The notes: generated by a model not told the origin, from the letters alone. DNA of 64,000 bases from a virus (IMGVR_UViG_2651870364_000001:1-64000); one strand, 5' to 3'; shown: positions 3,480 to 64,000, counted from the stretch's first letter. Numbers and translations are program-made.

Positions 3480-4712
3480 ATGGCAAATACACCTAAGATT
3501 AGATTTGAAGGATTTACTGACAATTGGGAACAGCGTAAGGTTGGTGAACTATGCGAAAGAATCACAAGAAAGAATAAAAATGGTGAATCCGATCTGCCTC
3601 TCACGATTGCGTCACAATACGGTCTGATCGATCAGCGAGACTTCTTTAATAAGGTAGTTGCAGCCAAGGATATGTCAAATTATTACCTCCTGAAGAAGGG
3701 AGAATTTGCATACAATAAGAGCTATTCAAATGGTTTTGATTATGGTTCTATAAAACGCCTTAATGCTTATGAACAAGGCTGTTTGTCGACATTGTATATT
3801 TGCTTTGGAATCACATCTGATGATATAGAATCAGATTACCTGGAGTGTTTCTTTGATACACTTAAATGGTACTCAGACATAACAATGATTTGTGCTGAAG
3901 GGGCAAGAAATCATGGACTTTTAAATGTAGATACAAAGGCATTTTTTGATGAAGTAACTATCGAAATGCCTACATCTAAGGACGAACAAAAAAAGATTTC
4001 AGCATATTTGAATAACCTCGATAACCTTATCACCCTTCATCAGCGTAAGTGTGACGAGACAAAAGAATTAAAAAAATATATGCTTCAAAAAATGTTTCCG
4101 AAAAAAGGTGAGAAAGTTCCAGAAATTCGATTTGCTGGATTTACTGACGATTGGGAACAGCGTAAGTTCGGTGAGTTATTAAATGAGACCAGAGAAAAGA
4201 CTACTGTAGAAGATGAGGATACATTACTTTCATGTGCAATAGATGGAATGTTTCTCAACTCTGAGTTATTTAGTCACTTTAGAGGCTCATCCAATATTGG
4301 ATACTTAAAAGTAAAAAAGAACGATTTGATTTTATCAGCACAGAACTTACATTTAGGAAATTGTAATGTCAATTTACGCTTCGAACATGGCATAATATCG
4401 CCTGCTTATAAGGTTTATGAACTGATAAACTGTAATCCATTGTTTATGCAAGCATGGATCAAGCAAGATAAGACAAAAGATTTCTTTTTAAAGGCATCGA
4501 CTGAAGGGGCAAGTGTTTGTAGAAAAAATATAGTTTGGGAAGAATTATATAAGCAGGAGTTGCCTGTTCCGAAAATTGATGAACAGGAAAAAATTGGAAA
4601 GTTCTTTCATGAACTCGATAACCTTATCACCCTTCATCAGCGGAAGTGTGACGAGACAAAAACAGTAAAGAAGTACATGCTACAAAATATGTTTCCAGGA
4701 AAGGACGATTAA
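3480..4712 (+). CDS. hsdS: Type I restriction-modification system, specificity subunit S
   Basis: There are two target-recognition domains. Each is followed by the same conserved repeat (LDNLITLHQRKCDETK, found twice). The start codon overlaps the hsdM stop. Confidence 0.85.
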   Translation: MANTPKIRFEGFTDNWEQRKVGELCERITRKNKNGESDLPLTIASQYGLIDQRDFFNKVVAAKDMSNYYLLKKGEFAYNKSYSNGFDYGSIKRLNAYEQGCLSTLYICFGITSDDIESDYLECFFDTLKWYSDITMICAEGARNHGLLNVDTKAFFDEVTIEMPTSKDEQKKISAYLNNLDNLITLHQRKCDETKELKKYMLQKMFPKKGEKVPEIRFAGFTDDWEQRKFGELLNETREKTTVEDEDTLLSCAIDGMFLNSELFSHFRGSSNIGYLKVKKNDLILSAQNLHLGNCNVNLRFEHGIISPAYKVYELINCNPLFMQAWIKQDKTKDFFLKASTEGASVCRKNIVWEELYKQELPVPKIDEQEKIGKFFHELDNLITLHQRKCDETKTVKKYMLQNMFPGKDD

Positions 4713-19136: not shown

Positions 19137-19670
19137 TTAATTAATATATTTTATAACTTTTCTTGGTGTGCTCTTCTTAACATCAATAATGCGTTGATTA
19201 GAAGACCCTCGATATTTCAAGTTCATATCCTTTAATTGCTCCATATACTGACCATCTACAAGAATGTCTACATTCTTAATGACAGATCTACGAAGTTTAT
19301 TAATCTCCTTGTCACGGCTGAATAATCTTTTCTTCATGATGTTCTCATAAGTATATCCGGTGTACAACCAAATCTTAATTTCATTACCATAATGTCGTCG
19401 GAAGCACTTTATAATTTCAGCGATCTTTTCAACATTATATTCAGCTAATGGTTCTCCACCAAGAATAGAAAACCTTTTAATACCAGGTTCATCTGCAAAA
19501 AAAAGCAAATCGAGCATATCTCCACTCTTAAACGGCTTACCGCCTTTTGGATCCCAAGTAGAAGAATTAAAACACCCTTTGCAGTGTATAGGGCACCCCT
19601 GGACGAAAAGGGCTATTCCTAAGCCCTCTCCGTTAGAGATGTCCATCTTCCTAATTGAAGCGTAATTCAT
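19137..19670 (-). CDS. nrdG: Anaerobic ribonucleoside-triphosphate reductase activating protein (radical SAM)
   Basis: Has a CxxxCxxC radical-SAM motif (CPIHCKGCFN). It is 177 aa and lies immediately downstream of nrdD with a 4-nt overlap. Confidence 0.8.
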   Translation of the reverse strand: MNYASIRKMDISNGEGLGIALFVQGCPIHCKGCFNSSTWDPKGGKPFKSGDMLDLLFFADEPGIKRFSILGGEPLAEYNVEKIAEIIKCFRRHYGNEIKIWLYTGYTYENIMKKRLFSRDKEINKLRRSVIKNVDILVDGQYMEQLKDMNLKYRGSSNQRIIDVKKSTPRKVIKYIN

Positions 19671-21904
19671 TGACCTACCTCCATGTTATCCAGGTGGTAT
19701 ACTCGATCATGGACATCAGCCATACGTCCCTGGTTAGCACCATTCTTGGCAGTCCCTATATATCCGCAGACTCTAAATGCGATATCCATAGTAGAGCTAT
19801 CATCGTTTCCACATTGAGGACAAATCCATTTAAGAATGCCATTTTTGTCCTCAATAGGGATATCTCCAGAATAACCACACTTCTCGCAGTAACAAGACTT
19901 AGTGTTAATCTCAGCATACATGATGTGGTCATACATGAATGTGATAACCTGAAGTAGAGCATCTACATTGTTACTCATATTTGGTGTTTCAATATAGCTG
20001 ATTGCTCCTCCAGGAGAAAGAGCCTGGAATTTAGACTCGATAGCCAACTTATTAAAGGCATCAATCTTTTCAAATACTGGGATATGGTAACTATTAGTGA
20101 TATAGTTACGATCTGTAATACCCTCAATAACACCAAAACGGGTCTTTAGACACTTAGCAAATTTATAAGTGGTAGACTCAAGCGGTGTGCCATAAAGAGA
20201 ATAATCAATATTCTCCTCTTTCTTCCACTTATTACAAGCATCATTCATGTGCTGCATGATTGCTAAACCGAATCTTTCACCCTTGTCTCCATCACTATGA
20301 CTAGATCCAGTCATATACTTTACAGCCTCGTATAAGCCTGCATATCCAAGGGAAATAGTTGAATAACCACCATATAGCAATGGATCAATTACTGCTCCTT
20401 TTGGCAATCTAGCAAGTCCACCATGCCTCCAAAGAATTGGAGCGACATCAACAGATGTTCCCTTAAGCCGTTCGTGTCGCAAACGTAGAGCCTTATGGCA
20501 AAGCTTTAATCTTTCATCGAAAATATTCCAGAAGGTGTCTATATCTCCACCAGACGACAATGCTACATCAGCAAGATTAATGGTTACAACTCCTTGGTTG
20601 AAACGACCATAATACTTATGCTTGCCGTCATAGTTTTTCGCATTTGCCATATTACCCAATTTATCAGTAAAACGGTCGGGAGTGAGAAATGATCTGCATC
20701 CCATTGCGGGAAAAACATCATTCTTCAACTGTAACATGACTTTTTCGGAAATATAGTCGGGAACCAGCCTCTTCGAAGAGCACTCTGCTGCTAATCTAGT
20801 AAGATACCAATAAGGTGAATCTTCATGAATATTATCTTCCTCCAGGCAATAAATCAGCTTAGGAAAAGCAGGAGCTGTCCAAACACCCTCTTCATTCTTA
20901 ACACCCTTAATCCTCTGGTGAAGCATCTCCTCAATCAGGAGAGATAAATCCTTCTTTTCCTGCTCATTCTTTGCTTCATTCAAATACATAAAGACTGTAA
21001 TGAATGGAGCCTGACCATTGGTAGTCATAAGAGTAACCAGCTGATACTGAATGGTCTGAATGCCTTTTCTAACCTCTTCCATAAGTCTTTTTTCAGTGAT
21101 AGCTTCAACCTTGTGTTTTAGTTTTTTCTTAAACATCGGAAGTTTAAATATGGGGTTAGAGAATAAAACCTCTTCCTTGGTCTGACACTTGATCTTATCT
21201 CGACTCACCTGCACAAAAGGAGCCAAGTGAGCAAGAGAGATACTCTGTCCACCGTACTGCGATGAAGCTACCTGAGCAATGATTTGGGTTGCTACATTAC
21301 AAGCGGTAGAAAAGCTATGAGGCTTTTCTATCATCGTACCACTAATAACCGTACCATTCTGTAGCATATCCTCTAAGTTAATTAGATCGCAATTATGACT
21401 ATGCTGAATAAAATAATCAGCATCGTGAAAATGAATAATTCCTTCATTATGAGCCTGAATAATCTCAGGAGGAAGAGTTCTCTTTACAAAATCTGTTGAT
21501 ACAGCTCCGGCAATATAATCACGTTTAGTTGTATTCAACCCCGGATCCTTATTTGCGTTTTCGTCCTTCCAGTACTCATTTTGATCCTCAATCAAAGTAT
21601 TAATATCAGCATCTGTGCTGTTGTGAGTCTCGCGTTGGAAGGTGTGAATGGCTCGATAAGAATCATAAGCACGAGCGGTCAATTGCTGGTTCTTCTCGTT
21701 TAATTTATTATATACGTCCTCTTCGATATCATAGATAGATATCTCGTCCTGATCTCGGTATTTGGCAGCAATCTCATCTGCAATATCCTCTGCAATATTG
21801 GGACGTACTACACCCGATCCATTTGTCATCGCTTTCATTATTGCGTTAACAATACGTTCTCGATCAAACGGTTGTAGTGTCGCATCTCTTTTTACTACGT
21901 TCAT
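19667..21904 (-). CDS. nrdD: Anaerobic ribonucleoside-triphosphate reductase (class III RNR)
   Basis: 745 aa, with the C-terminal glycyl-radical motif (RVCGYIGT) and a Zn-ribbon (CEKCGY...CPQCG). Confidence 0.9.
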   Translation of the reverse strand: MNVVKRDATLQPFDRERIVNAIMKAMTNGSGVVRPNIAEDIADEIAAKYRDQDEISIYDIEEDVYNKLNEKNQQLTARAYDSYRAIHTFQRETHNSTDADINTLIEDQNEYWKDENANKDPGLNTTKRDYIAGAVSTDFVKRTLPPEIIQAHNEGIIHFHDADYFIQHSHNCDLINLEDMLQNGTVISGTMIEKPHSFSTACNVATQIIAQVASSQYGGQSISLAHLAPFVQVSRDKIKCQTKEEVLFSNPIFKLPMFKKKLKHKVEAITEKRLMEEVRKGIQTIQYQLVTLMTTNGQAPFITVFMYLNEAKNEQEKKDLSLLIEEMLHQRIKGVKNEEGVWTAPAFPKLIYCLEEDNIHEDSPYWYLTRLAAECSSKRLVPDYISEKVMLQLKNDVFPAMGCRSFLTPDRFTDKLGNMANAKNYDGKHKYYGRFNQGVVTINLADVALSSGGDIDTFWNIFDERLKLCHKALRLRHERLKGTSVDVAPILWRHGGLARLPKGAVIDPLLYGGYSTISLGYAGLYEAVKYMTGSSHSDGDKGERFGLAIMQHMNDACNKWKKEENIDYSLYGTPLESTTYKFAKCLKTRFGVIEGITDRNYITNSYHIPVFEKIDAFNKLAIESKFQALSPGGAISYIETPNMSNNVDALLQVITFMYDHIMYAEINTKSCYCEKCGYSGDIPIEDKNGILKWICPQCGNDDSSTMDIAFRVCGYIGTAKNGANQGRMADVHDRVYHLDNMEVGQ

Positions 21905-41610: not shown

Positions 41611-41683
41611 TGTGCCTAATGGGATTCGAACCCACGACACCTCGATTAAAAGTCGAGTGCTCTGCCAACTGAGCTACAGGCAC
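41611..41683 (-). tRNA. tRNA-Lys (anticodon TTT)
   Basis: Folded manually. Acceptor stem GTGCCTG/TAGGCAC, D-arm GCTCAGTTGGCAGAGC, anticodon loop CTTTTAA, T-loop TTCGAAT. Length 73 nt. Confidence 0.8.
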
Positions 41684-41838
41684 TTAGAAATATTACCTTT
41701 CTCACTCTCTCCTAAAAGAGCGAGCTTTCACGACTATTCCACATTACATAGCCAATCTTAATGGACTCGTCCATCAGTGTTATATCAGTCCGAAAACTAT
41801 AGTGGGCAATAATAATTTAATATTAATTTTGTTTAAAA

Positions 41839-41914
41839 TAGACCTTCTGGGACTCGAACCCAGGACAGACACGGCTTATAAGGCCGCCGCTCTAACCAAC
41901 TGAGCTAAAGGTCC
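41839..41914 (-). tRNA. tRNA-Ile (anticodon TAT, reads AUA) - isotype tentative
   Basis: Cloverleaf has acceptor GGACCTT/AAGGTCT, D-arm GCTCAGTTGGTTAGAGC, anticodon stem GCGGC/GCCGT with loop CTTATAA, and T-arm CTGGG TTCGAGT CCCAG. Confidence 0.65.
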
Positions 41915-42213
41915 AAAAGTGGAATCCCAAACAATCTCACAGATTCCTGCTACGAGTTACCGTGCATCAGCCAAGCATCGGATTATCGTAGGTTTTTCGG
42001 TATTTTTTCATCACTAAGGCTTTTAGTGTTTTCCTCATGTTTCACGTTAGATTTTCGTACTAACAAGCTACAACTGTCGACTTAGTAGCAACGTTCAGTC
42101 CTAAATACTTAGGTTAGATTCCTCTGAATGCTATCTAACCTAATTTTAATCAGTTAATCTAATCAGTTAGTTAATGTAATCACTTAGTTAATCATTTGGT
42201 TTGCAAACCTGAG

Positions 42214-42285
42214 TAGCTCGAAGGAGAATCGAACCCCTGTCTCCACCGTGAAAGGGTGGCATCTTAACCACTTGACTATCGAGCC
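42214..42285 (-). tRNA. tRNA-Glu (anticodon TTC)
   Basis: Has acceptor GGCTCGA/TCGAGCT, anticodon stem CCACC/GGTGG with loop CTTTCAC, and T-loop TTCGATT. Confidence 0.75.
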
Positions 42286-42413
42286 ATGCTATTTGAACTA
42301 AGCTTTGGGATCCTATTCGAAATCAGATCCTTTGCTACGCGCGATTTTTTCGTTCTTCTTACAGCCAGGGGACGATGTCCCCTAACCGCAAAGGCTAATA
42401 GTTTAGCCCTAGA

Positions 42414-42485
42414 CTGGGGTACTCGGATTTGAACCGAGGAATTAGGGAGTCAAAGTCCCCTGCCTTACCGCTTGGCGATACCCCA
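42414..42485 (-). tRNA. tRNA-Gln (anticodon TTG)
   Basis: Has acceptor TGGGGTA/TACCCCA, anticodon loop CTTTGAC, and T-arm CTCGG TTCAAAT CCGAG. Confidence 0.75.
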
Positions 42486-42660
42486 TTACCCGGCTTTTCA
42501 GCCGGATAGAAAAATGTAGGAGGTATAATATCTACAGATTTAATTCTGTAGACTGCTGACAAAAGGATTTGCACCTTTACGAGATTGTACTTCTCTCCAG
42601 AGTTTCTCACTCCTGTGTCTACTTCCACCATGTCAGCAAATCAGATTCTTGAATCTGAGA

Positions 42661-42732
42661 TAACTCCAACGGGGATCGAACCCGTGTTACCGCCGTGAAA
42701 GGGCGATGTCTTAACCGCTTGACCATGGAGCC
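42661..42732 (-). tRNA. tRNA-Glu (anticodon TTC), second copy with G-U pairs at the acceptor end
   Basis: GGCTCCATGGTCAAGCGGTTAAGACATCGCCCTTTCACGGCGGTAACACGGGTTCGATCCCCGTTGGAGTTA. The loop is CTTTCAC and the T-arm is canonical. Confidence 0.7.
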
Positions 42733-52699: not shown

Positions 52700-54250
52700 T
52701 CGTTACTTAATTCACAAAATTCAAGAAACCTTTTTGTTAGCACGACATCTCATGGCTATGTCACCCTATCTTGTTGATTTTGTGACTTTATAGATAGCTC
52801 TATCTACTGGTATTAGCCTAATACCTCTACCCAATACAACTCAGGCTACTTTTAGTTTAGTTACCTTTTCTCGATGTTTTATTGGTACTGTATTCTGATA
52901 CTTCTTGATAATCTGATAAGCACCATTCACATCTGCGTTAATAATTTCTCCTGTGTTACTTACAAAACAACCTCTCGTCTTTCTACGCTTTTTGTTGTAA
53001 TAATTCTCCGTAGGTAGCTCTCCGTCCAAATAACTCGTACCACTTGTATACGCCTCATTCACAACTTTGACTGTGATACCTACAAGGTTAGCTTTATACT
53101 CTATCATCTGTATAAGCATCAAATACGGAATACCGACAAATACCTGGTTTGTTTTCTTACCCATCTTGACTTGTTGTTTCCAACCTTGATTATTACCTAT
53201 GACTATTATGCCTATATTATTACTAACCGCTATATCCACTACCATTCTACTTACCTTATGTAGATAGTCCTTGACTTTGTTGTTTCGTCTATCGGTCAAT
53301 CTACACATTCGCTTGGTAGCATAACGATTATTCAGTGTCTTTGCCAACTCTTGTAGTCTTGCTGTTTCTTTGTTATACCACTGATTGTTTGCTTTCAATG
53401 GTTTTCCGTCTATAATAACTGGGTTATGCGTGTTACTAAACACGGCAACCACCAAATTGTCTATATTCAGGTCTATACCCATTATCTCGTTACTATCAAC
53501 TGACTGTGCATCCGCTACCTTATACAGTATCTGTATCTTTATCCTACTGCCCGTAGTGATTATCCGTACTTGTGTGATATTATCGTGTCTTGCTCTGATA
53601 CGGATACCCTCAAATGCCTTTGGCAACTCGACATTTCTGTTACTGTCAACCTTGATATTCTGATATGTCAGCACAAGCCAATTTCTGCCCGTTTCTTTAT
53701 CATAATACCTCGGTGGTCTCGGTCTGCCCAACATCGAAGCTGGGTTTTTCTTCCACTGTTTCATACCTTGATAAAAGGCTTTCCAATCTCTACATATCAT
53801 TTGAATACATACTTGAGCCGATGTTGCACTCGGCATCTCTTTATATACATCAAGCCGTTTCAAATACCAACAGAGAAAATAAGCATCTGCTACAAAACCG
53901 TTAGTATTATCTATATACTTAGTGTGTTTTTCTTTACCTGTATGATTATACTCATAAATCGCACAGTTAATACGATATATAAAACCTTTCTCCCAACTGT
54001 CTAATATCTCGCCGTCTTTTAGTTTGTAACTAATCCGCGAACACTGTTTGATTATATAATTCGTATAATTCCGCAGGTTTTTAGACGCAAAACAATACCT
54101 ATCTACTTTCTCGTATAGGTCTTTATTCTTCCGTTTAATACTGTGAGTTTCTGTTAATATCATAATAAAACCTCGCTAAACCAACAACTCTGGAGGACAG
54201 AGCCTTTTTTGTTATATCTAGCGCGACATCTCTTTCGAGAAGGACATTTA
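52700..54250 (-). mobile_element. IS200/IS605-family insertion element, TnpB-only (IS1341-like); boundaries approximate
   Basis: A single tnpB ORF is flanked by ~140 nt (RE side) and ~90 nt (LE side) of noncoding sequence. A hairpin CTCTGGAGGACAGAG sits at ~54193-54207. No tnpA is present. Confidence 0.6.
52841..54163 (-). CDS. tnpB: TnpB (OrfB) RNA-guided nuclease family protein, RuvC-like, with a degenerate zinc finger
   Basis: RuvC-I (MGIDLNIDN), RuvC-II (VVNEAYTS) and RuvC-III (NADVNGAYQI) are present. The usual CxxC...CxxC zinc finger is replaced by TSGTSYLDG...RGCFVSNTG. Confidence 0.75.
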   Translation of the reverse strand: MILTETHSIKRKNKDLYEKVDRYCFASKNLRNYTNYIIKQCSRISYKLKDGEILDSWEKGFIYRINCAIYEYNHTGKEKHTKYIDNTNGFVADAYFLCWYLKRLDVYKEMPSATSAQVCIQMICRDWKAFYQGMKQWKKNPASMLGRPRPPRYYDKETGRNWLVLTYQNIKVDSNRNVELPKAFEGIRIRARHDNITQVRIITTGSRIKIQILYKVADAQSVDSNEIMGIDLNIDNLVVAVFSNTHNPVIIDGKPLKANNQWYNKETARLQELAKTLNNRYATKRMCRLTDRRNNKVKDYLHKVSRMVVDIAVSNNIGIIVIGNNQGWKQQVKMGKKTNQVFVGIPYLMLIQMIEYKANLVGITVKVVNEAYTSGTSYLDGELPTENYYNKKRRKTRGCFVSNTGEIINADVNGAYQIIKKYQNTVPIKHREKVTKLKVA

Positions 54251-55102
54251 TCGTAATTCGACATTTACTAAATCTCCTTTCAATTTATCTAGGATCATCT
54301 GTGCCGTTTTCTGGATGGTTGCCATTGAATCTTGAAGTTCTTTGACTTCTCTTCCAGTTGTCCAGGATCCAATATATTCAAACGAATAGTCCGATGTATC
54401 CAACCCCAAGCAATTCGCAACTACATAGCTAACAGACTCGGCTTCAACTTCCTTCGTCTGACGATCTTTCTTTTTTCCTTCTTCACTACTGTGCAGCAAG
54501 GAATGCGCCAATTCATGAAATACGGTTTTTATCGTCTGCAAATCAGACATGCCTTCTTTAATGGCAATCTTCTGTTTACTGAAAGAATAATACCCATTTG
54601 ATCCATTTGTGATCGTCTCAAATACAATCGGTACGGGAGCAATCTCTTTTACCTTTTCCAAGATCTTAGGAAGAAAATCTACCTGCCCGGTTAGCTCATT
54701 ACAAATTTTCGGTAGTGGCTCACCTTCCGTATCCGACACGTCAAATACATTCACTGCACGATACTTTATAATTTTCACTTCTTCGTAATCATTCTCTGAA
54801 TCATCAACTTTTTTATGTATGGTTATAGGACACGGAGCTATAATACTAATAGCATGTGCACCGTGCTTTACATGACGATTGAACTTACTTTGCCAAGTTT
54901 TGTATCCAGCTACCAACTGAGCTTCGGGTTTTTGCATAGCAATAAGCAAGCTGTTTGAAAACGAATATGTATGAAAAGCGCTCATGACCCGTAAGTATGA
55001 AGCATATTTTTCTGATGTAAGAAATTCTTTTACACCTTCTTCTAACTGTTTTGTTAGTGCTTCTATCTTCTTTGACACAAAATCACCTCCACTTGTTACC
55101 AT
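54248..55102 (-). CDS. ArdC-like antirestriction protein (N-terminal ssDNA-binding domain plus C-terminal HExxH metallopeptidase)
   Basis: Has an ArdC_N/DUF1738-like segment (YLRVMSAFHTYSFSNSLLIAMQKP...GYKTWQ) and a C-terminal FHELAHSLLH zincin motif. Confidence 0.55.
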   Translation of the reverse strand: MVTSGGDFVSKKIEALTKQLEEGVKEFLTSEKYASYLRVMSAFHTYSFSNSLLIAMQKPEAQLVAGYKTWQSKFNRHVKHGAHAISIIAPCPITIHKKVDDSENDYEEVKIIKYRAVNVFDVSDTEGEPLPKICNELTGQVDFLPKILEKVKEIAPVPIVFETITNGSNGYYSFSKQKIAIKEGMSDLQTIKTVFHELAHSLLHSSEEGKKKDRQTKEVEAESVSYVVANCLGLDTSDYSFEYIGSWTTGREVKELQDSMATIQKTAQMILDKLKGDLVNVELR

Positions 55103-57708: not shown

Positions 57709-57804
57709 CTGGTTAGCTAAATATTGATAACCTCGTGTTTTCTGTCTGTCTCAACCTTATATACACTCAGTCTTTAATGCATGTAACTGTATCCAGTTGA
57801 TATT

Positions 57805-57862
57805 AACCAGTACCGGATCGCTGCATGAACAATAGGGAAGTTGCAGCGATCCGGTACTGGTT
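57805..57862. repeat. Perfect 21-bp GC-rich inverted repeat with a 16-nt spacer
   Basis: AACCAGTACCGGATCGCTGCA (tgaacaatagggaagt) TGCAGCGATCCGGTACTGGTT is seen directly. It is GC-rich within AT-rich DNA. Confidence 0.7.
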
Positions 57863-57970
57863 GAATTGAAAATCAGAACATTGTGTATATTGCTTCATGC
57901 TAAGCCATTACTTTGTGCTTAAACCTTCTTGCGTATTACTCTAGCTAACTGATATTATAAGCTCAGTGCC

Positions 57971-58005
57971 GAAAACGGGCTTGATCAATAGATAAGCCCG
58001 TTTTC
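57971..58005. terminator. Bidirectional Rho-independent terminator
   Basis: A 12-bp stem (GAAAACGGGCTT gatcaatagat AAGCCCGTTTTC) is flanked by an A-run and a T-run. Confidence 0.6.
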
Positions 58006-58106
58006 ATAATGAGCTTACTCATTAAATTGAAGATTATCACACAATACCTCTACGCTAAGTTCTTTGCTCAAGCTAAACTGTACATTGCTTTACTTTCTTG
58101 ATATTC

Positions 58107-58163
58107 GAAGGCAGTGCAGCGAACGCAGTCGTTGATCACGAAGGCGTTGGCTGTACTGCCTTC
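58107..58163. ncRNA. GC-rich stem-loop element (candidate structured RNA)
   Basis: GAAGGCAGT...ACTGCCTTC is a 9-bp stem enclosing ~39 nt of GC-rich sequence, in a region with no coding potential. Confidence 0.3.
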
Positions 58164-58250
58164 AGGATTGAAGACATAGCCATTACAAAGTATCCTGTAC
58201 TAGATTGTGACTGCACTGTGTTTGAACGAGATATTACGATAGTGAGCTGA

Positions 58251-58342
58251 TATATAACAGGTTGAAGCTGTCCAGCAGCCGGTGCTGAGTCAAATCTCTG
58301 ACTCAGCGACCGGAAGCTGGACACGCATCCATCTGTTATATT
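58251..58342. ncRNA. Nested long hairpin (candidate structured RNA or DNA cruciform)
   Basis: The outer stem is TATATAACAG/CTGTTATAT, the middle stem GCTGTCCAGC/GCTGGACA, and the inner stem CCGGTGCTGAGTCA/TGACTCAGCGACCGG. The 62-aa ORF at 58136-58324 is probably spurious. Confidence 0.35.
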
Positions 58343-58396
58343 AAATCATCAAACCTCATGCAGTCTTCTCTATCTCAAGAATTTAATTATGTATAC

Positions 58397-59290
58397 TTAT
58401 GCACCGAAGTGGAAGTTATTATCTGCAATAACCTTCTTAAGCATTGCAAGATAACGCCATCCTTCACCTGTATAAATATCCAACTTCGAATCTACGAATG
58501 CCATACCATCATCACCGTATAACTTATTCCCGTTATCATCGATGATGAATACATCATGAAACAAAATCATGTTCTGCAATGTATAGTAAGCACCAGATCC
58601 CTTGAAGGCAGCGACCCAATCGGAACACTTACTTGTCTTCCGAATCAGTTTAACATGAGGCTGATGATTGAAGTTATATACCAGGTTATGCAGCTCTCTG
58701 TATGAGTTGCATACTGTAACCCTTCGAAGCATGTTCTTAATCGGATTAAGCACTCGAGTCTTGACTTTATTAGATGGAACTCGACCAATACCGGAAACCC
58801 AAATATGATTACCACCCCTTGCCTTCAATTGAGCACATAAACTTGAAGTCTTATCCAGATAATCAGAAAACAAACTGAATACAACACCTTTTGTAAAGAA
58901 CGTTTGTCTTGCTCTAAAGCTTTCCGGATCTCTTGCTTCCATGTGCTTTAACACATTCAACTCATCCTCAAGCATACTGAACTGGTACATGTAACTGTAG
59001 TTCTTCTTCAGGTACTTGGAATAATCTCCACTGTTCAACATCTTAAACATCTGAGCCATCACCCAACGACGGTGAAGCTTGTTATTCTTGATATATCCGC
59101 TCTCAGCCACATCGCTAACATCTACACTGTCTCCTGTTGCAGCATTGACAACCGGATCGTTTAGATTATTGAAGTCAATAGTAATACTAGATCCTGCGTT
59201 CATTCCATTCGGAAGGTCGATTACGAATCGACTTGTATCAATTCCTGCTGCGTTTAATGCTTCTGCTCTGTTTATTCTGTTTGTTGCCAT
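58397..59290 (-). CDS. Hypothetical protein (297 aa) downstream of the RT operon
   Basis: An ORF with a reasonable RBS and no recognisable motif. Confidence 0.45.
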   Translation of the reverse strand: MATNRINRAEALNAAGIDTSRFVIDLPNGMNAGSSITIDFNNLNDPVVNAATGDSVDVSDVAESGYIKNNKLHRRWVMAQMFKMLNSGDYSKYLKKNYSYMYQFSMLEDELNVLKHMEARDPESFRARQTFFTKGVVFSLFSDYLDKTSSLCAQLKARGGNHIWVSGIGRVPSNKVKTRVLNPIKNMLRRVTVCNSYRELHNLVYNFNHQPHVKLIRKTSKCSDWVAAFKGSGAYYTLQNMILFHDVFIIDDNGNKLYGDDGMAFVDSKLDIYTGEGWRYLAMLKKVIADNNFHFGA

Positions 59291-59300
59291 AATTCTCTCC

Positions 59301-59801
59301 TTACTCGAACCAATCTTTTAACACAATTAATTCTGGATACTCCTGACTTTGCCAGAAGAACGAACCCCATTCAGGATTCCATTTTAATGTACCATTAAGT
59401 TTTGCACATAAAAACCAGACCTCCAATCTAGCCTTCGCTAATGATCTATCCTCTGCTAACATGAGCTTTTCATCGGGAATATCATCCATGCTTAATGCTT
59501 TGAAGTATCCCTTTCTTTTTCGCTCTTCTCTTGCAGATGGAAGTGAATATTTATACAGCGCAAATAATTTCTGCAACTCATCCAATGGATTATCGCAAGG
59601 TGTACTTAAGTCATATTCACTCTCTCCTTCCTTTATGATCTTTTTATCCCCCACACGAACTGTATTAGTTTTGAAATCAACGAAACATCTTTTCCCTTGC
59701 TGCACATTCCTTTGAACGTATTCTAATATATTCATTTTCTTTTTCCTTTTCTGTAGTACCTGGTGGATATTGCGTAGCGCTCTATTGCCTTGATGTATCA
59801 T
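59301..59801 (-). CDS. Hypothetical protein; the true start is probably the internal Met at ~59735 (about 144 aa)
   Basis: The first ATG abuts a large hairpin with no Shine-Dalgarno sequence. The second Met (MNILEY...) is preceded by AAAGGAAAAAG. Confidence 0.4.
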   Translation of the reverse strand: MIHQGNRALRNIHQVLQKRKKKMNILEYVQRNVQQGKRCFVDFKTNTVRVGDKKIIKEGESEYDLSTPCDNPLDELQKLFALYKYSLPSAREERKRKGYFKALSMDDIPDEKLMLAEDRSLAKARLEVWFLCAKLNGTLKWNPEWGSFFWQSQEYPELIVLKDWFE

Positions 59802-59880
59802 TCAGGACCCGAAATCCAAGACTGATCGGATGGAGGCTGATCTGCCTCACTGACTGATCAGTCTTGTCTCGGGTCCTGAA
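59801..59880 (-). ncRNA. Y-shaped structured element immediately downstream of the RT gene
   Basis: TTCAGGACCCGAAATCCAAGACTGATC...GATCAGTCTTGTCTCGGGTCCTGAA forms a 12-bp plus 10-bp interrupted stem around an inner GAGGC/GCCTC stem-loop. It lies in a ~195-nt noncoding gap. Confidence 0.4.
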
Positions 59881-59931
59881 TAGTACTGAATGAATCCGCA
59901 TAGTATCTACTGTTTACGCAAACATCATGAA

Positions 59932-61215
59932 TCACATGCTACGAACTATTGTGTCATAGGCATCACGACTGGTTCTTAACACATTCTGCATACACTTAAT
60001 CGTATAGTAACCATCTAGATTACCGATGATACTTCGATTAGTGGTCACATTTCTCCCCGTTCCTCTGCTGACTACCCCGAAGTCTCTACAGTCTTCATAA
60101 CCGATACCTCCAATCTTTCTTCTTTTCTGATCTCTTCCGCATGCTCTAATTGCATCCATAACAAATTTATCAAGCTCCAAAATATCATGATCGCAATTCA
60201 TTATCGGCAACACACTTGTTGCCCAAGAGAATCGACCATCTCCCCGATACATGTAATCATTAACTGCATTCAAGGCTTTCTGGACTGAAGTATGTTTTCT
60301 CTTGATAGTCCGACTCTCTATCTCTTTCTTAAAAGTCTTCAATCGTCCTTTACTCAAACTGATCATATCCCCTTTAATCGAGAACCCTAAGAACTTGAAC
60401 CAATGATTAGAATCAAGGTACTGCACTTTCTTAGGATTAAGTGTAAGACCCTTATCAGCAAGCAAAGCTGTCATAGCATCCATTGCAATATCATAATATT
60501 CTCCTACGTATAGACAATCATCAGAATATCTTACGTAGTACCCCGGTAGGTCAGACATAACATCATCTAGTTCGTATAAAACAGCATCAGCAAGAAACGC
60601 AGCTACAGCACATCCCTGCATTAAACTCATGTATTTCTTCTGTAAATGACCATCTACATCAAAGCAAAGATCCTGATGATAATATTCTCTGACAACATCT
60701 AAGATTACTGACTTTCCAACTCTTTGCTCGATCTTGTCAAATGTTGCGTCAATAAATTCAATTGGAACAGAATCAAAATACTTGCTTAAGTCAGACTTCC
60801 AGCCAATCGTTTTACCATGAGCTTCCCCTACAATATGAGCTACATCTTTTACAACTTGCCCACATCCGATTCCCTTTTGATAAGATTTGCACCGTTCATG
60901 AACCATATCAGAACAAAGCTCAAATAGCAGATTGCTTACAATTGATAAAAACAACCTATCTAATGACTCATTGATATATACTGTCCTAAATTCACCTGGC
61001 TTATCCTTCGGAATAAGTTGAGCATGTGGAGGAGCAATGGCATAATCTCCAGTTGCTACTCTTGCATAAAACGTAGCTCTTACCTTTGGGTCTGTTAACT
61101 GTAAGAGCAATGCTCGGTCGATGTCTTTATCGACACCAACCTGCAAAGCTTTCTCCCACGTTTCTTTCTTAAAACACAATTCCAACAAGCAATCCATATA
61201 ATTTTCACTCCTCAT
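59932..61215 (-). CDS. Reverse transcriptase (group-II-intron-like/RT0-7 plus thumb, no endonuclease domain; family unassigned)
   Basis: Has motif 1 (LIPKDKPGEFRTVYI), motif 2 (SDLSKYFDSV), motif 4 (MQGCAVAAFLADAVLYELD), the YxDD catalytic motif (YVRYSDDCLYV) and a motif 7-like segment (FKFLGFSI). Length 427 aa. Confidence 0.85.
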   Translation of the reverse strand: MRSENYMDCLLELCFKKETWEKALQVGVDKDIDRALLLQLTDPKVRATFYARVATGDYAIAPPHAQLIPKDKPGEFRTVYINESLDRLFLSIVSNLLFELCSDMVHERCKSYQKGIGCGQVVKDVAHIVGEAHGKTIGWKSDLSKYFDSVPIEFIDATFDKIEQRVGKSVILDVVREYYHQDLCFDVDGHLQKKYMSLMQGCAVAAFLADAVLYELDDVMSDLPGYYVRYSDDCLYVGEYYDIAMDAMTALLADKGLTLNPKKVQYLDSNHWFKFLGFSIKGDMISLSKGRLKTFKKEIESRTIKRKHTSVQKALNAVNDYMYRGDGRFSWATSVLPIMNCDHDILELDKFVMDAIRACGRDQKRRKIGGIGYEDCRDFGVVSRGTGRNVTTNRSIIGNLDGYYTIKCMQNVLRTSRDAYDTIVRSM

Positions 61216-62083
61216 TATATACTGAAACCGTTTTTGTGTTCATGTCATAAATATAAGGAACATCACTTAACTGTTCAGCTGGTACAACATCGCTATTATT
61301 AACCATTTTAATCATAGTTGCTAATTGCTTTGCTGAACCCATCTCCTTATCCGGAGATAAGACGATAATCTCATGAATTGAACTTGGTATAATTAACAAC
61401 TTAACATTTCCAATCCTATGGCAGATCTCATCCAGAACTTTTGGACTTGCAAGCATTCCAGCGCCATGTGTATTTCTCTTGTTTGATATTGCAAGCATTG
61501 TAGGACCAGCTGTTATTCCTAATAAATCCTTTCTAATGTCCATAACACTAATATCATTTAAAGAGTTTTCCTGTCCCTGTTTTAAGAGATCATCTACTGT
61601 CTTACCCCACATCTGTAAGTGCTGCTGGGTTACAACGAAAGAAGCAACTTTATCTCCTTCGTTTGAGACCATAACTCTAAAGTAAATAGCGAGATTTGCC
61701 AGCGGAACAAATGGGACACTTTCCTTAAAATCTGATGAAGTATTTTTACTTGCAGCACAAAGCGTGATCCTTGGTGCTACAACATTCCAGTGAGTTAACT
61801 GCTTCAAAATTTCGTCATCAACAGGAGGTTCTGTTGATAATGCTGCCACAGCTTTTGCTATACGTTCAATAAAGGCATCACGCGCATCTGAAACAGTATA
61901 TAATCCCTGACGATATTTTTCATAAATATCATCAACATAAACTGTCGGAGCTACCATTGAACCGTTCTGCCTTACGGTAACCCCTAATTTTTTCCCGGTT
62001 TCTTTTATGACTTCGTGAGTAGAAATCTCTAAATTTTCTGGTACATTGATTGATTTGATTAAGGATTCAATAAATGTTTTCAT
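61205..62083 (-). CDS. Hypothetical protein (292 aa) translationally coupled to the RT
   Basis: The 3' end overlaps the RT start by 11 nt. No recognisable motif. Confidence 0.45.
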   Translation of the reverse strand: MKTFIESLIKSINVPENLEISTHEVIKETGKKLGVTVRQNGSMVAPTVYVDDIYEKYRQGLYTVSDARDAFIERIAKAVAALSTEPPVDDEILKQLTHWNVVAPRITLCAASKNTSSDFKESVPFVPLANLAIYFRVMVSNEGDKVASFVVTQQHLQMWGKTVDDLLKQGQENSLNDISVMDIRKDLLGITAGPTMLAISNKRNTHGAGMLASPKVLDEICHRIGNVKLLIIPSSIHEIIVLSPDKEMGSAKQLATMIKMVNNSDVVPAEQLSDVPYIYDMNTKTVSVYNEE

Positions 62084-62135
62084 GTTTTTTCTTGTCCTTT
62101 CTTTATGCCTGACCTTCCGGTCGGATTATTGTTTT

Positions 62136-63347
62136 CTAAACTAATTCGAATAATGCAGTTTCAACCATATCCCAGCTGACTTCTGGGAAACGTATCATAA
62201 ATTTTCCAATAACAGACAACTTGCTTTCAGCTCTTAATGTTACTTCGTGATAGTATCCATTCTTATCACAGAAACCGAAGATACCTTCAACTTCAGTCTG
62301 TTCAAGATCTGACTTCAAAGCCATGTCTGAAATAGTAGCTGCGCAAGGTTCTTCTCCTTGTTTGTCGATATAACCATCGTAATCGTAATCATCATCCCAA
62401 GCATATCCGTATCCGTAGAGATAGCCGTTTTTTGTATATCCACCATATCTGTAAGTGTTTTCAATGTACTCGAACTGTTTTACGTCTTCTTCTGCAGATT
62501 TCTGAACCAGCTCTTTAACGACCTCAGCAGTATGCATCATTTCTTCATAAACAATTTCTTCATCGAAATGATGCTCATGATAATAACCGGAACTCAAATT
62601 AACGGAGCTGACTCCTGAAGCCTCAGAAAGATAACAGATATCAGAGCAAGATCCATACGCTTCCTTATATCCGGTTACTTCTTCAACGAAGGAGTGAAAA
62701 TCTTCATTTATATCTTCGTAAAAGACGCAATCACTGTTTCCACGTCTGTCTATCTCTACAATGAACTTCATCGAAGTCATTGCATCAGCCCATTTGCATT
62801 TACAAAACTTATTGGCTCCCACACATCCAATCTCTTCATCTTCGCAAAAGAGGATACTTGGACGCATCTCTGTATTTTTAACGATTTCAAGAATTGCCCA
62901 AATACCACAGCGATCATCACCACCAATTCCCTGAGGAGAAGCCAAAACATGTTTTCCATTTTCTTCTCTCTCGTAAAAATCTTTAATGACTTCTTTATGA
63001 ACCGTGTCCATATGAGCAACTAACATCACCGGATACTTTTCATCTCCCTGAATATAAAGATATCCATCACCATCATGAATATCTTTAGCTGGATAGTATC
63101 TTCGCATCTTGACTTTAAGCCACTTTTTAATCTGAGGCTGAGTCTTTTTTAGAAGCTTTACAAACTGCGGGAACGAAGTTTTATTTTTCGCTCCCTTAAA
63201 TTCATAATCTGGGTTACTATAGCCGGCTCGAACTCTGGTGGAAGTCTTATTAATGTAGTTACCAAATGAACTGTAATTATACAAAGAGCCGCCTGCATTC
63301 TTATTCCAAATATTACTTACTGTAGGTGTTGAAAAGTCTTTGCTCAT
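62136..63347 (-). CDS. M28/M20-family dinuclear zinc peptidase-like protein
   Basis: Metal-ligand pattern H (LVAHMDTVH), D (GIGGDDRCGIW), EE (CEDEEIGCVGA) and a later H (YYHEHH). Length 403 aa. Confidence 0.45.
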   Translation of the reverse strand: MSKDFSTPTVSNIWNKNAGGSLYNYSSFGNYINKTSTRVRAGYSNPDYEFKGAKNKTSFPQFVKLLKKTQPQIKKWLKVKMRRYYPAKDIHDGDGYLYIQGDEKYPVMLVAHMDTVHKEVIKDFYEREENGKHVLASPQGIGGDDRCGIWAILEIVKNTEMRPSILFCEDEEIGCVGANKFCKCKWADAMTSMKFIVEIDRRGNSDCVFYEDINEDFHSFVEEVTGYKEAYGSCSDICYLSEASGVSSVNLSSGYYHEHHFDEEIVYEEMMHTAEVVKELVQKSAEEDVKQFEYIENTYRYGGYTKNGYLYGYGYAWDDDYDYDGYIDKQGEEPCAATISDMALKSDLEQTEVEGIFGFCDKNGYYHEVTLRAESKLSVIGKFMIRFPEVSWDMVETALFELV

Positions 63348-63385
63348 TTAATTTTCCCTTCTAGTGCGTAAAACAAATAATTGTT

Positions 63386-63976
63386 TTACGCAACTTCTGC
63401 CTTTATCCATATGCCATTTTCCTGAAGAATGTATCCTTCATTTTCTGCATCTTCTTCATTGCAAAACAATGTACCATCTGACATAGTAATTACTTGATTA
63501 TCTTTAACCCAAACATCAGAGTAGTCAACATAAACATAATTGTCTAAAATCGCATTTTCCTCTGAAGAATACTTAGCGCCATCTTCTGTCTCAATCTCAG
63601 GATCACCGTAATACCATTCACCGTCCCAATTATCTCGATAACAGTATTCTTCTGTGTGCCATCTTCCGTCATTCACGCATGCATAAACTCCAGAACGTTC
63701 TGCGCAATCTTCGTCACAATAATATCGGTCATTATCTTCACAATGGATATAACAATCATCTTCTGCAATACCACCACCACAATGACTACAATATGCAATA
63801 TAATGTTTTCGACATTTTGGGCATTCAATGCCATTTGAATCATCGTGATATTCGCCGCAAGAGATACAGATTGGTGCGTGACCTACCGTAATTTTCTCGA
63901 AGTTTTTCTTGGCTTCTGGCTGTCCCAGATAACTTACATTACAATCGTCATAATTGAAGTAATCTGGGTAGTTCAT
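63386..63976 (-). CDS. Hypothetical Cys-rich protein, first gene of the RT operon
   Basis: Has multiple CxxC pairs (CISCGEY...CPKCRKHYIAYCSHCGG...CYIHCEDN). Length 196 aa. Confidence 0.4.
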   Translation of the reverse strand: MNYPDYFNYDDCNVSYLGQPEAKKNFEKITVGHAPICISCGEYHDDSNGIECPKCRKHYIAYCSHCGGGIAEDDCYIHCEDNDRYYCDEDCAERSGVYACVNDGRWHTEEYCYRDNWDGEWYYGDPEIETEDGAKYSSEENAILDNYVYVDYSDVWVKDNQVITMSDGTLFCNEEDAENEGYILQENGIWIKAEVA

Positions 63977-64000
63977 TGCACCTGTACCGTGTACAATTGC

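Follow-up and report, generated by a model that had tools for sequence, protein, structure and literature searches.

A UG27 reverse transcriptase and its two partner genes

We analysed a window of 64,000 nucleotides (nt) of viral DNA (IMGVR_UViG_2651870364_000001:1-64000), within which the locus studied spans positions 57709-63976. The locus encodes, on the minus strand, a reverse transcriptase (RT) of UG27, a family of class 2 UG/Abi RTs, followed directly downstream by the UG27-associated proteins of clusters 346 and 337 (c346 and c337). The gaps after the RT gene and after c337 hold five copies of one structured noncoding module. We read the locus as a phage-borne UG27 system in which the modules would act as noncoding RNAs (ncRNAs) that guide the synthesis of complementary DNA (cDNA). 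An initial annotation of the same DNA had seen here an undescribed RT-based system, with the RT as the last of four genes in an operon; the minus-strand open reading frames (ORFs) that it listed are confirmed in position.

The RT gene occupies 59932-61197 (minus strand). The longest ORF reaches 61215 and would encode 427 amino acids (aa), but the ATG at 61197 (Met7), which gives a protein of 421 aa, is the likely start because three observations agree: an AGGAG lies 10 nt upstream of this ATG, the homologues are 420-421 aa long, and the match to the UG27 profile begins at residue 7 of the longest ORF. That match (RT_UG27 of PADLOC) covers residues 7-427 and profile positions 2-420 of 420, with an expectation value (E) of 2.6e-200 and 663.8 bits. 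The runner-up profiles are UG26 (126.5 bits), UG17 (82 bits, 8.3e-24) and Drt9 (71 bits, 2.5e-20). The Drt2 profile reaches 2.1e-9 and the best retron RT profile 5.4e-6; the CRISPR-associated and retron RT profiles all fall many orders of magnitude below UG27. Membership of DRT10 (UG17), DRT9 or DRT2 was rejected on these values. The only Pfam domain found in the protein is RVT_1, with no endonuclease and no maturase domain, and across 25 aligned homologues the catalytic YSDD and the residues of KFLGF and QGCxVA do not vary. The core motifs are therefore intact and an endonuclease domain is missing, as first annotated.

Homologues are plentiful (4,231 at E<=1e-20). The RT is 90-96% identical to those of three close relatives, L001 (96%), L085 and L170, and 52-61% identical to all other UG27 members examined. 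A scan of IMG/VR with the single protein and a megablast of the locus against phage records found nothing.

The two genes that follow the RT are the conserved partners of the family. The first, RTas346 (c346; 59301-59735, minus strand), encodes 144 aa and matches its profile at E 2.7e-51; the profile covers residues 23-166 of the ORF, which supports Met23 as the start. The second, RTas337 (c337; 58397-59290, minus strand), encodes 297 aa (E 9.2e-93). The order RT, c346, c337 is constant in about 200-250 loci fetched from IMG/VR, genomes and metagenomes. These relatives come from IMG/VR contigs, from a cultured Bacteroides phage and from prophages of Alistipes, Bacteroides and Ruminococcus.

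The cultured phage, BS-TP1, carries a complete UG27 set (L250, PQ571274.1, 79351-83904). Its RT (gp79) bears the annotation 'tail protein', an unannotated gap of 1,349 nt separates the RT from the RTas346 homologue (gp80), and an additional gene of 133 aa (gp81) stands between RTas346 and RTas337. Two separate UG27 loci (L091 and L104) were found on one complete chromosome, that of Alistipes sp. i18-0019-D1 (NZ_AP031424.1), where they presumably represent two prophages.

This combination is that of the UG27 system defined by Mestre et al. (2022, Nucleic Acids Res 50:6084, PMC9226505), in which an RT of UG/Abi class 2 is joined by clusters 346 and 337, both devoid of recognisable domains. The same study found UG27 in 1,447 dereplicated predicted gut-phage genomes, described a putative intergenic ncRNA of three long stem-loops, and saw no enrichment in defence islands; a role in addiction or anti-defence was suggested. 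The initial annotation had allowed that its proposal of an undescribed system would fall with a clear placement of the RT inside a known family of standard architecture. Profile searches against curated RT families give a clear UG27 placement (664 against 127 bits), with RTas346 and RTas337 alongside; because the RT sits inside a known family with that family's standard parts, the proposal fails on its own terms.

Five noncoding modules in two gaps

Given the start of c346 at Met23, the noncoding gap between the RT and c346 spans 59736-59931 (196 nt). A second gap, after c337, spans 57709-58396 (688 nt). Both fold far better than shuffled sequence (z = -6.5 and z = -11.8, respectively) and both contain long inverted repeats, one of them perfect over 21 bp. 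The noncoding segment of about 195 nt annotated after the RT is thus real and structured. The stretch of about 690 bp described as GC-rich and full of inverted repeats has the length and the repeats claimed for it, but its GC content is only marginally raised, at 0.40 against 0.37 for the whole window.

The structure of both gaps is accounted for by five copies of one module of 125-158 nt, one copy in the RT/c346 gap and four after c337. Folded alone, each of the five forms a closed domain consisting of a closing stem and a long hairpin. The layout is the same throughout: a closing stem specific to the module, a U-rich 5' junction (UUCAAU or UUUAAU), the hairpin, and a 3' junction. The hairpin is 20-40 bp long and differs in sequence in every copy. 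In the window and in L170, L085 and L080 the 3' junction reads AAUAUCA, about 8 nt, then AAAGUAAUG; in most UG27 lineages it reads AUAUGAAAC, 6-9 nt, then A(C/A)AGAAAUG. Read by eye, the conserved 3' junction (AUAUGAAAC...) was judged not to be coding, since it varies at first and second positions and is conserved at third positions.

The module in the RT/c346 gap (nc1; 59753-59910, minus strand) has a closing stem, a hairpin at 59796-59886, a 5' junction of AUUCAUUCAGUA and a 3' junction of UACAUCAAGG..UAGAG..UACGCAA. It forms its closed domain at -64.9 kcal/mol. The structure had been described as a large Y-shaped hairpin; the hairpin is indeed large, but it takes the form of one long interrupted hairpin inside a closing stem. 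In an alignment of nc1 with L170 and L085, conserved flanks surround a hairpin that has been replaced, and five pairs of the closing stem show compensatory change on both sides.

The four modules after c337 also lie on the minus strand. Module A (58209-58365), recognised by its fold and inverted repeats, has the closing stem GACUGCA/UGCAGUC and a hairpin at 58252-58341. Module B (58060-58192) has the closing stem CUUUG/CAAAG, the junctions UUCAAUCC and AAUAUCAAGAAAGUAAAGCAAUG, and a hairpin at 58106-58164. Module C (57931-58055) is closed by GCGUA/UACGC, with the junctions UUCAAUUUAAU and AAUAUCAG..UAGAGUAAUACGC and a hairpin at 57958-58018; this hairpin is terminator-like yet has no T tail, and a terminator scan called none there. 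Module D (57759-57890) is closed by AUAUACAC/GUGUAUAU, with AAUG and UGAG adjoining, and has the junctions UUUUCAAUUCA and AAUAUCAACUGGAUACAGUUACAUG. Its hairpin (57805-57862) contains the inverted repeat of 21 nt that is 100% complementary. The layout of module D is near-identical to that of the first module of L085. The idea that hairpin arms are acquired sequence was set aside, as the 19-nt arm of hairpin D had no exact match in IMG/VR. Scans of the locus for promoters and terminators gave uninformative signal.

The last 50 nt before the next gene, which encodes 183 aa (57709-57758, GGUUGAGACAGACAGAAAACACGAGGUUAUCA...), recur in conserved form where the L170 contig ends. The 183-aa gene may therefore have a conserved leader in common with L170, and it is possibly linked to the UG27 system.

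The modules belong to UG27 loci

A profile of the 3' junction was built from L170, L085 and L080 only, with no window sequence, and was used to scan the whole 64-kb window on both strands. Its three best matches lie exactly 3' of hairpins B, C and D: the best is on the minus strand at 58110-58058 (module B, E 4.4e-4), the second on the minus strand at 57961-57913 (module C, E 8.7e-4) and the third at 57809-57769 (module D, E 0.15). The modules are likewise repeated in tandem in every UG27 lineage examined, with four copies in L083, five each in L003 and L170, and up to about ten in L002.

The modules are associated exclusively with UG27 genes, on the strand of those genes. With a cross-lineage profile applied to 84 loci, 345 of the 351 matches were on the gene strand and inside intergenic gaps of UG27 loci. 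Another 166 loci (1.34 Mb) gave matches on the gene strand only (314/314), and all of those that could be placed (185/185) lay between the RT and c346 or just after c337. The initial annotation was right in attaching structured noncoding elements to the RT. The closing stems are specific to each module: over 281 modules the cognate 5' and 3' flanks pair at -22.3 kcal/mol and non-cognate flanks at -14.0 kcal/mol, and for 24 modules of divergent loci the corresponding values are -14.7 and -10.8 kcal/mol (p = 3.7e-5).

The position of the array is not fixed, and different UG27 lineages use different gaps. The 80 IMG/VR loci and most Bacteroidota prophages carry it between the RT and c346, in a gap of 430-2,000 nt; in L002-L004, L170 and the window it follows c337. 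In L120-L169 the gap between c346 and c337 is also large (300-1,760 nt); the motif matches that could be placed in these loci are upstream of c346.

The array and the accessory genes vary much more than the RT. Between the window and L085 or L170 the RT is about 91% identical, c346 is 64-67% and c337 60-61% identical, and the arrays are replaced. From these identities it follows that the array and the two accessory genes diverge as a set, or are swapped as one, under a conserved RT. The locus is mosaic, which suggests either recombination at the borders of the RT gene or far stronger constraint on the RT.

The L170 array contains pure A runs of 18 nt (3733-3750) and 31 nt (3898-3928), each immediately after an AAAGU(A/U)AUG junction. 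The matching region of the window has no homopolymer of 10 nt or longer. The runs may be assembly artefacts, or genuine homopolymer templates comparable to the poly-U of DRT9.

Upstream genes and phage context

Directly upstream of the RT lies a gene for a DUF5688 protein of 292 aa (61205-62083, minus strand; Pfam PF18941, E 3e-48). It had been described as overlapping the RT by 11 nt. This holds for the longest RT ORF only; with the likely start at 61197, DUF5688 ends 7 nt ahead of the RT, and the ribosome-binding site of the RT lies inside the DUF5688 gene. DUF5688 is also directly upstream of the RT in L001, L085 and L170. The L170 protein is very similar to that of the window, and the L085 protein is only 50% identical to it. 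In L002-L004 the gene is 3-4 kb from the RT; it was not detected in the 80 IMG/VR loci or the Bacteroidota prophage loci, more than 100 in all, and it occurs in phage records without a UG27 RT. A literature search on DUF5688 found nothing. Judged by this distribution, DUF5688 is a neighbour tightly spaced with the RT in this sub-lineage alone and not a component of the family as a whole.

The two genes further upstream are even more restricted. The peptidase and the Cys-rich ORF stand beside a UG27 RT only in L001, whose RT is 96% identical, apart from one peptidase of 30% identity about 900 nt upstream of the RT in L111, a Rikenellaceae prophage. The 'Cys-rich 196-aa' protein is a fragment: its frame (63386-64000) is open to the window edge at 64000, and its counterpart in L001 is the C-terminus of a 766-aa protein, for which no Pfam or PADLOC match was found. 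Given how the peptidase, the Cys-rich ORF and DUF5688 are distributed across loci, the four genes of the proposed operon are not conserved as a unit; it is the two genes downstream of the RT, and not the three upstream, that are its conserved partners.

The element is a phage and the window is its replication module. The genes of the window include a DNA polymerase, a DnaB-like helicase, a NAD-dependent ligase, an exonuclease V/Dda-like helicase and an anaerobic ribonucleotide reductase of NrdD type (19667-21904); NrdD is in keeping with a strictly anaerobic (gut) host. Six tRNA genes are clustered at 41611-42732 (minus strand). An IS605-family TnpB/OrfB gene (52841-54163) is adjoined by an ArdC-N/M78-like gene (54248-55102), and their order is the same in L001, the closest contig (118 kb). 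The polymerase, helicase, ligase, NrdD and six tRNAs bear out the phage setting first assigned to the locus.

Comparison with characterised systems

The locus shares with published UG27 systems the RT family, clusters 346 and 337, a structured stem-loop region and a gut-type phage setting. It differs in that the ncRNA was sought in the RT/c346 gap in the published systems, whereas here one module lies in that gap and four lie after c337, and in that DUF5688 abuts the RT. What is particular to this locus is its divergent RT lineage, its split array placed mostly after c337, and DUF5688 beside the RT. The tandem-array layout itself has probably been reported already, in a preprint of 24 September 2026 (10.64898/2026.09.22.753630), judged by its term counts (UG27 74, cDNA 24, hairpin 33, 'ncRNA array' 10).

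Among characterised families UG17/DRT10 is the closest by profile score. It too is a class 2 UG system whose RT needs a structured ncRNA. DRT10 makes protein-primed tandem repeats from a template loop just 3' of a stable stem-loop, and we count as a likeness to the window modules that the DRT10 ncRNA places a stable stem-loop immediately 5' of a single-stranded segment. The window locus has no SLATT effector, however, and carries a downstream array of many copies instead of a single upstream ncRNA; it is borne by a phage, whereas DRT10 stands in a host-defence context, and it gives no tandem-duplication signal. DRT9 (UG28) and DRT2 (UG2) are likewise class 2 UG RTs with an adjacent structured ncRNA, and both make repetitive cDNA, poly-dA in DRT9 and a rolling-circle concatemer in DRT2. 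Unlike the window locus they are single-gene systems with one upstream ncRNA and no counterparts of c346 and c337, and their profile scores are far lower. Retrons resemble the locus in that a closing stem brackets a long hairpin near the RT and accessory proteins stand alongside; they differ in RT clade and in having one msr-msd, against five tandem copies here, and no retron RNA match was obtained in the window.

Proposed mechanism

We propose that the locus is a phage-borne UG27 system made up of the RT, c346, c337 and five ncRNA modules that would guide cDNA synthesis, a reading to which we assign a probability of about 0.72. The modules would be transcribed together with the operon. By analogy with DRT2, DRT9 and DRT10, each module would bind the RT and position a template for cDNA synthesis, and the long hairpin would fix the position of the conserved 3' junction. 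The c346 and c337 proteins would then handle or respond to the RT product. Its use to the phage would lie in conflict, either with the host or with other phages, and not in mobility. No reported function for UG27 was found in the literature searched.

Several points weigh against this proposal. Each step of the mechanism is drawn by analogy with class 2 UG RTs, and the analogy is imperfect, as the UG27 array lies downstream of the RT, whereas the ncRNAs of DRT2, DRT9 and DRT10 lie upstream of theirs. The structural evidence gives little sign of the strand that acts: 1x1 mismatches in the long hairpins show no strand asymmetry (G/U 42 vs A/C 49), whole arrays fold slightly better on the antisense strand, and the closing stems favour the sense strand weakly, the divergent set not significantly. 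Confident structure models were obtained for c346 and c337, yet no fold relatives were found for them and they gave no functional clue. A 3'-junction profile built from the distant L002, L003 and L083 alone did not detect the window modules significantly, so the homology of modules across the family rests on layout, on nearer relatives and on short motifs. Finally, tandem self-matches in 150 distinct 25-nt flanks of hairpins are not enriched (2.67 vs 2.81 in shuffles).

A telomerase-like or DRT10-like template had been entertained for the modules. By eye, the 5' junctions UUCAAUUCAA and CAAUUCAAUUCAAUU resemble 1.5-3 copies of a pentamer, but statistics gave no support, and the telomerase-like template was dropped because self-matches in the flanks are no commoner than in shuffles.

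Alternative explanations

The RT might instead copy the hairpin itself. In such a retron-like variant the variable hairpin would template cDNA (like msd), the closing stem would serve as a1/a2, and the array would yield varied single-stranded DNA hairpins, acting for example as nuclease decoys or sensors. The closing stem around a long hairpin does resemble msr-msd topology, the hairpin differs in each copy while the flanks are conserved, and near-perfect hairpins without a bias for G/U over A/C are to be expected if the stem forms in both RNA and cDNA. Inverted repeats that decay neutrally would, however, also lack such a bias; the class 2 UG RTs that have been characterised take short loops and not long hairpins as templates; and the best retron profile stands at 5.4e-6 against 2.6e-200 for UG27. 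We regard such a variant as possible but doubtful. Actual membership of the retrons was rejected: to the RT score can be added that a coding gene directly precedes the RT, that the likeness to msr-msd is one of topology only, and that Rfam at E<=1 returned only chance microRNA matches and no retron RNA family. A group II intron was also rejected, as Rfam reports only tRNAs at its gathering threshold and Pfam finds RVT_1 without a maturase domain. A phage RT beside noncoding DNA could bring to mind a diversity-generating retroelement whose template repeat is the noncoding stretch. When both stretches were compared with the window by blastn (word size 7), only their own inverted repeats were recovered and no A-to-N copy, so that there is no pair of template and variable repeats within the 64 kb; no Avd-like accessory is among the neighbours, and the RT scores as UG27. 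Such a retroelement can be set aside for practical purposes. Profile, Pfam, Rfam and blastn results thus agree with the first judgement that the locus fits neither group II introns nor classical retrons nor diversity-generating retroelements.

The modules could also act at the level of DNA and merely lie beside RT genes, for example as a replication origin, as sites for recombination or packaging, or as signals in the form of cruciforms or single-strand hairpins. Both strands are equally well structured, the phage is a large one whose replication module makes up the window, and repeats combined with inverted repeats are typical of origins. The behaviour of the modules speaks against this. They travel with the three UG27 genes across unrelated phage backbones and across prophages of Bacteroidota and Firmicutes, changing among three possible gaps but never leaving the locus; their junction motifs are gene-oriented in the proportions given above (314/314 and 345/351); and the accessory genes and the array diverge jointly under an RT that remains about 91% identical. 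Since the junctions keep one orientation relative to the genes and are confined to UG27 loci, we consider a neighbour that acts purely as DNA improbable. Nor do we favour the earlier model in which the Cys-rich protein, the M28-like peptidase and DUF5688 are the partners of the RT. The genes share a strand and are tightly spaced, DUF5688 being 7 nt from the RT and containing its ribosome-binding site; DUF5688 adjoins the RT in L085 despite only 50% identity; and L111 has its distant peptidase upstream of the RT. Against this stand the near-restriction of the peptidase and Cys-rich ORF to L001, the origin of the latter as a fragment of a 766-aa gene, and a DUF5688 gene that is displaced by 3-4 kb in L002-L004, absent from more than 100 UG27 loci and present where there is no UG27 RT. 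This model is very unlikely, although a link between DUF5688 and the RT specific to the sub-lineage is possible.

Within the proposed UG27 system, a more specific arrangement can be put forward tentatively, and as speculation. The modules may form a multi-template array, each loading the RT for its own DNA product, to be used against host immunity or rival phages. The c346 and c337 genes and the array would together make up a fast-evolving specificity cassette under a conserved RT, with DUF5688 as a possible fourth component, translationally coupled to the RT.

Significance

UG27 is one of the few RT families carried mainly by phages and not by their hosts. The window locus is a compact, divergent representative of UG27 and not a system of a new kind. 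Its comparison with relatives shows that the noncoding partner of the family consists of discrete modules of defined layout arrayed in tandem, that this array may occupy any of the gaps in the locus, and that it diversifies along with the two accessory genes under a conserved RT.

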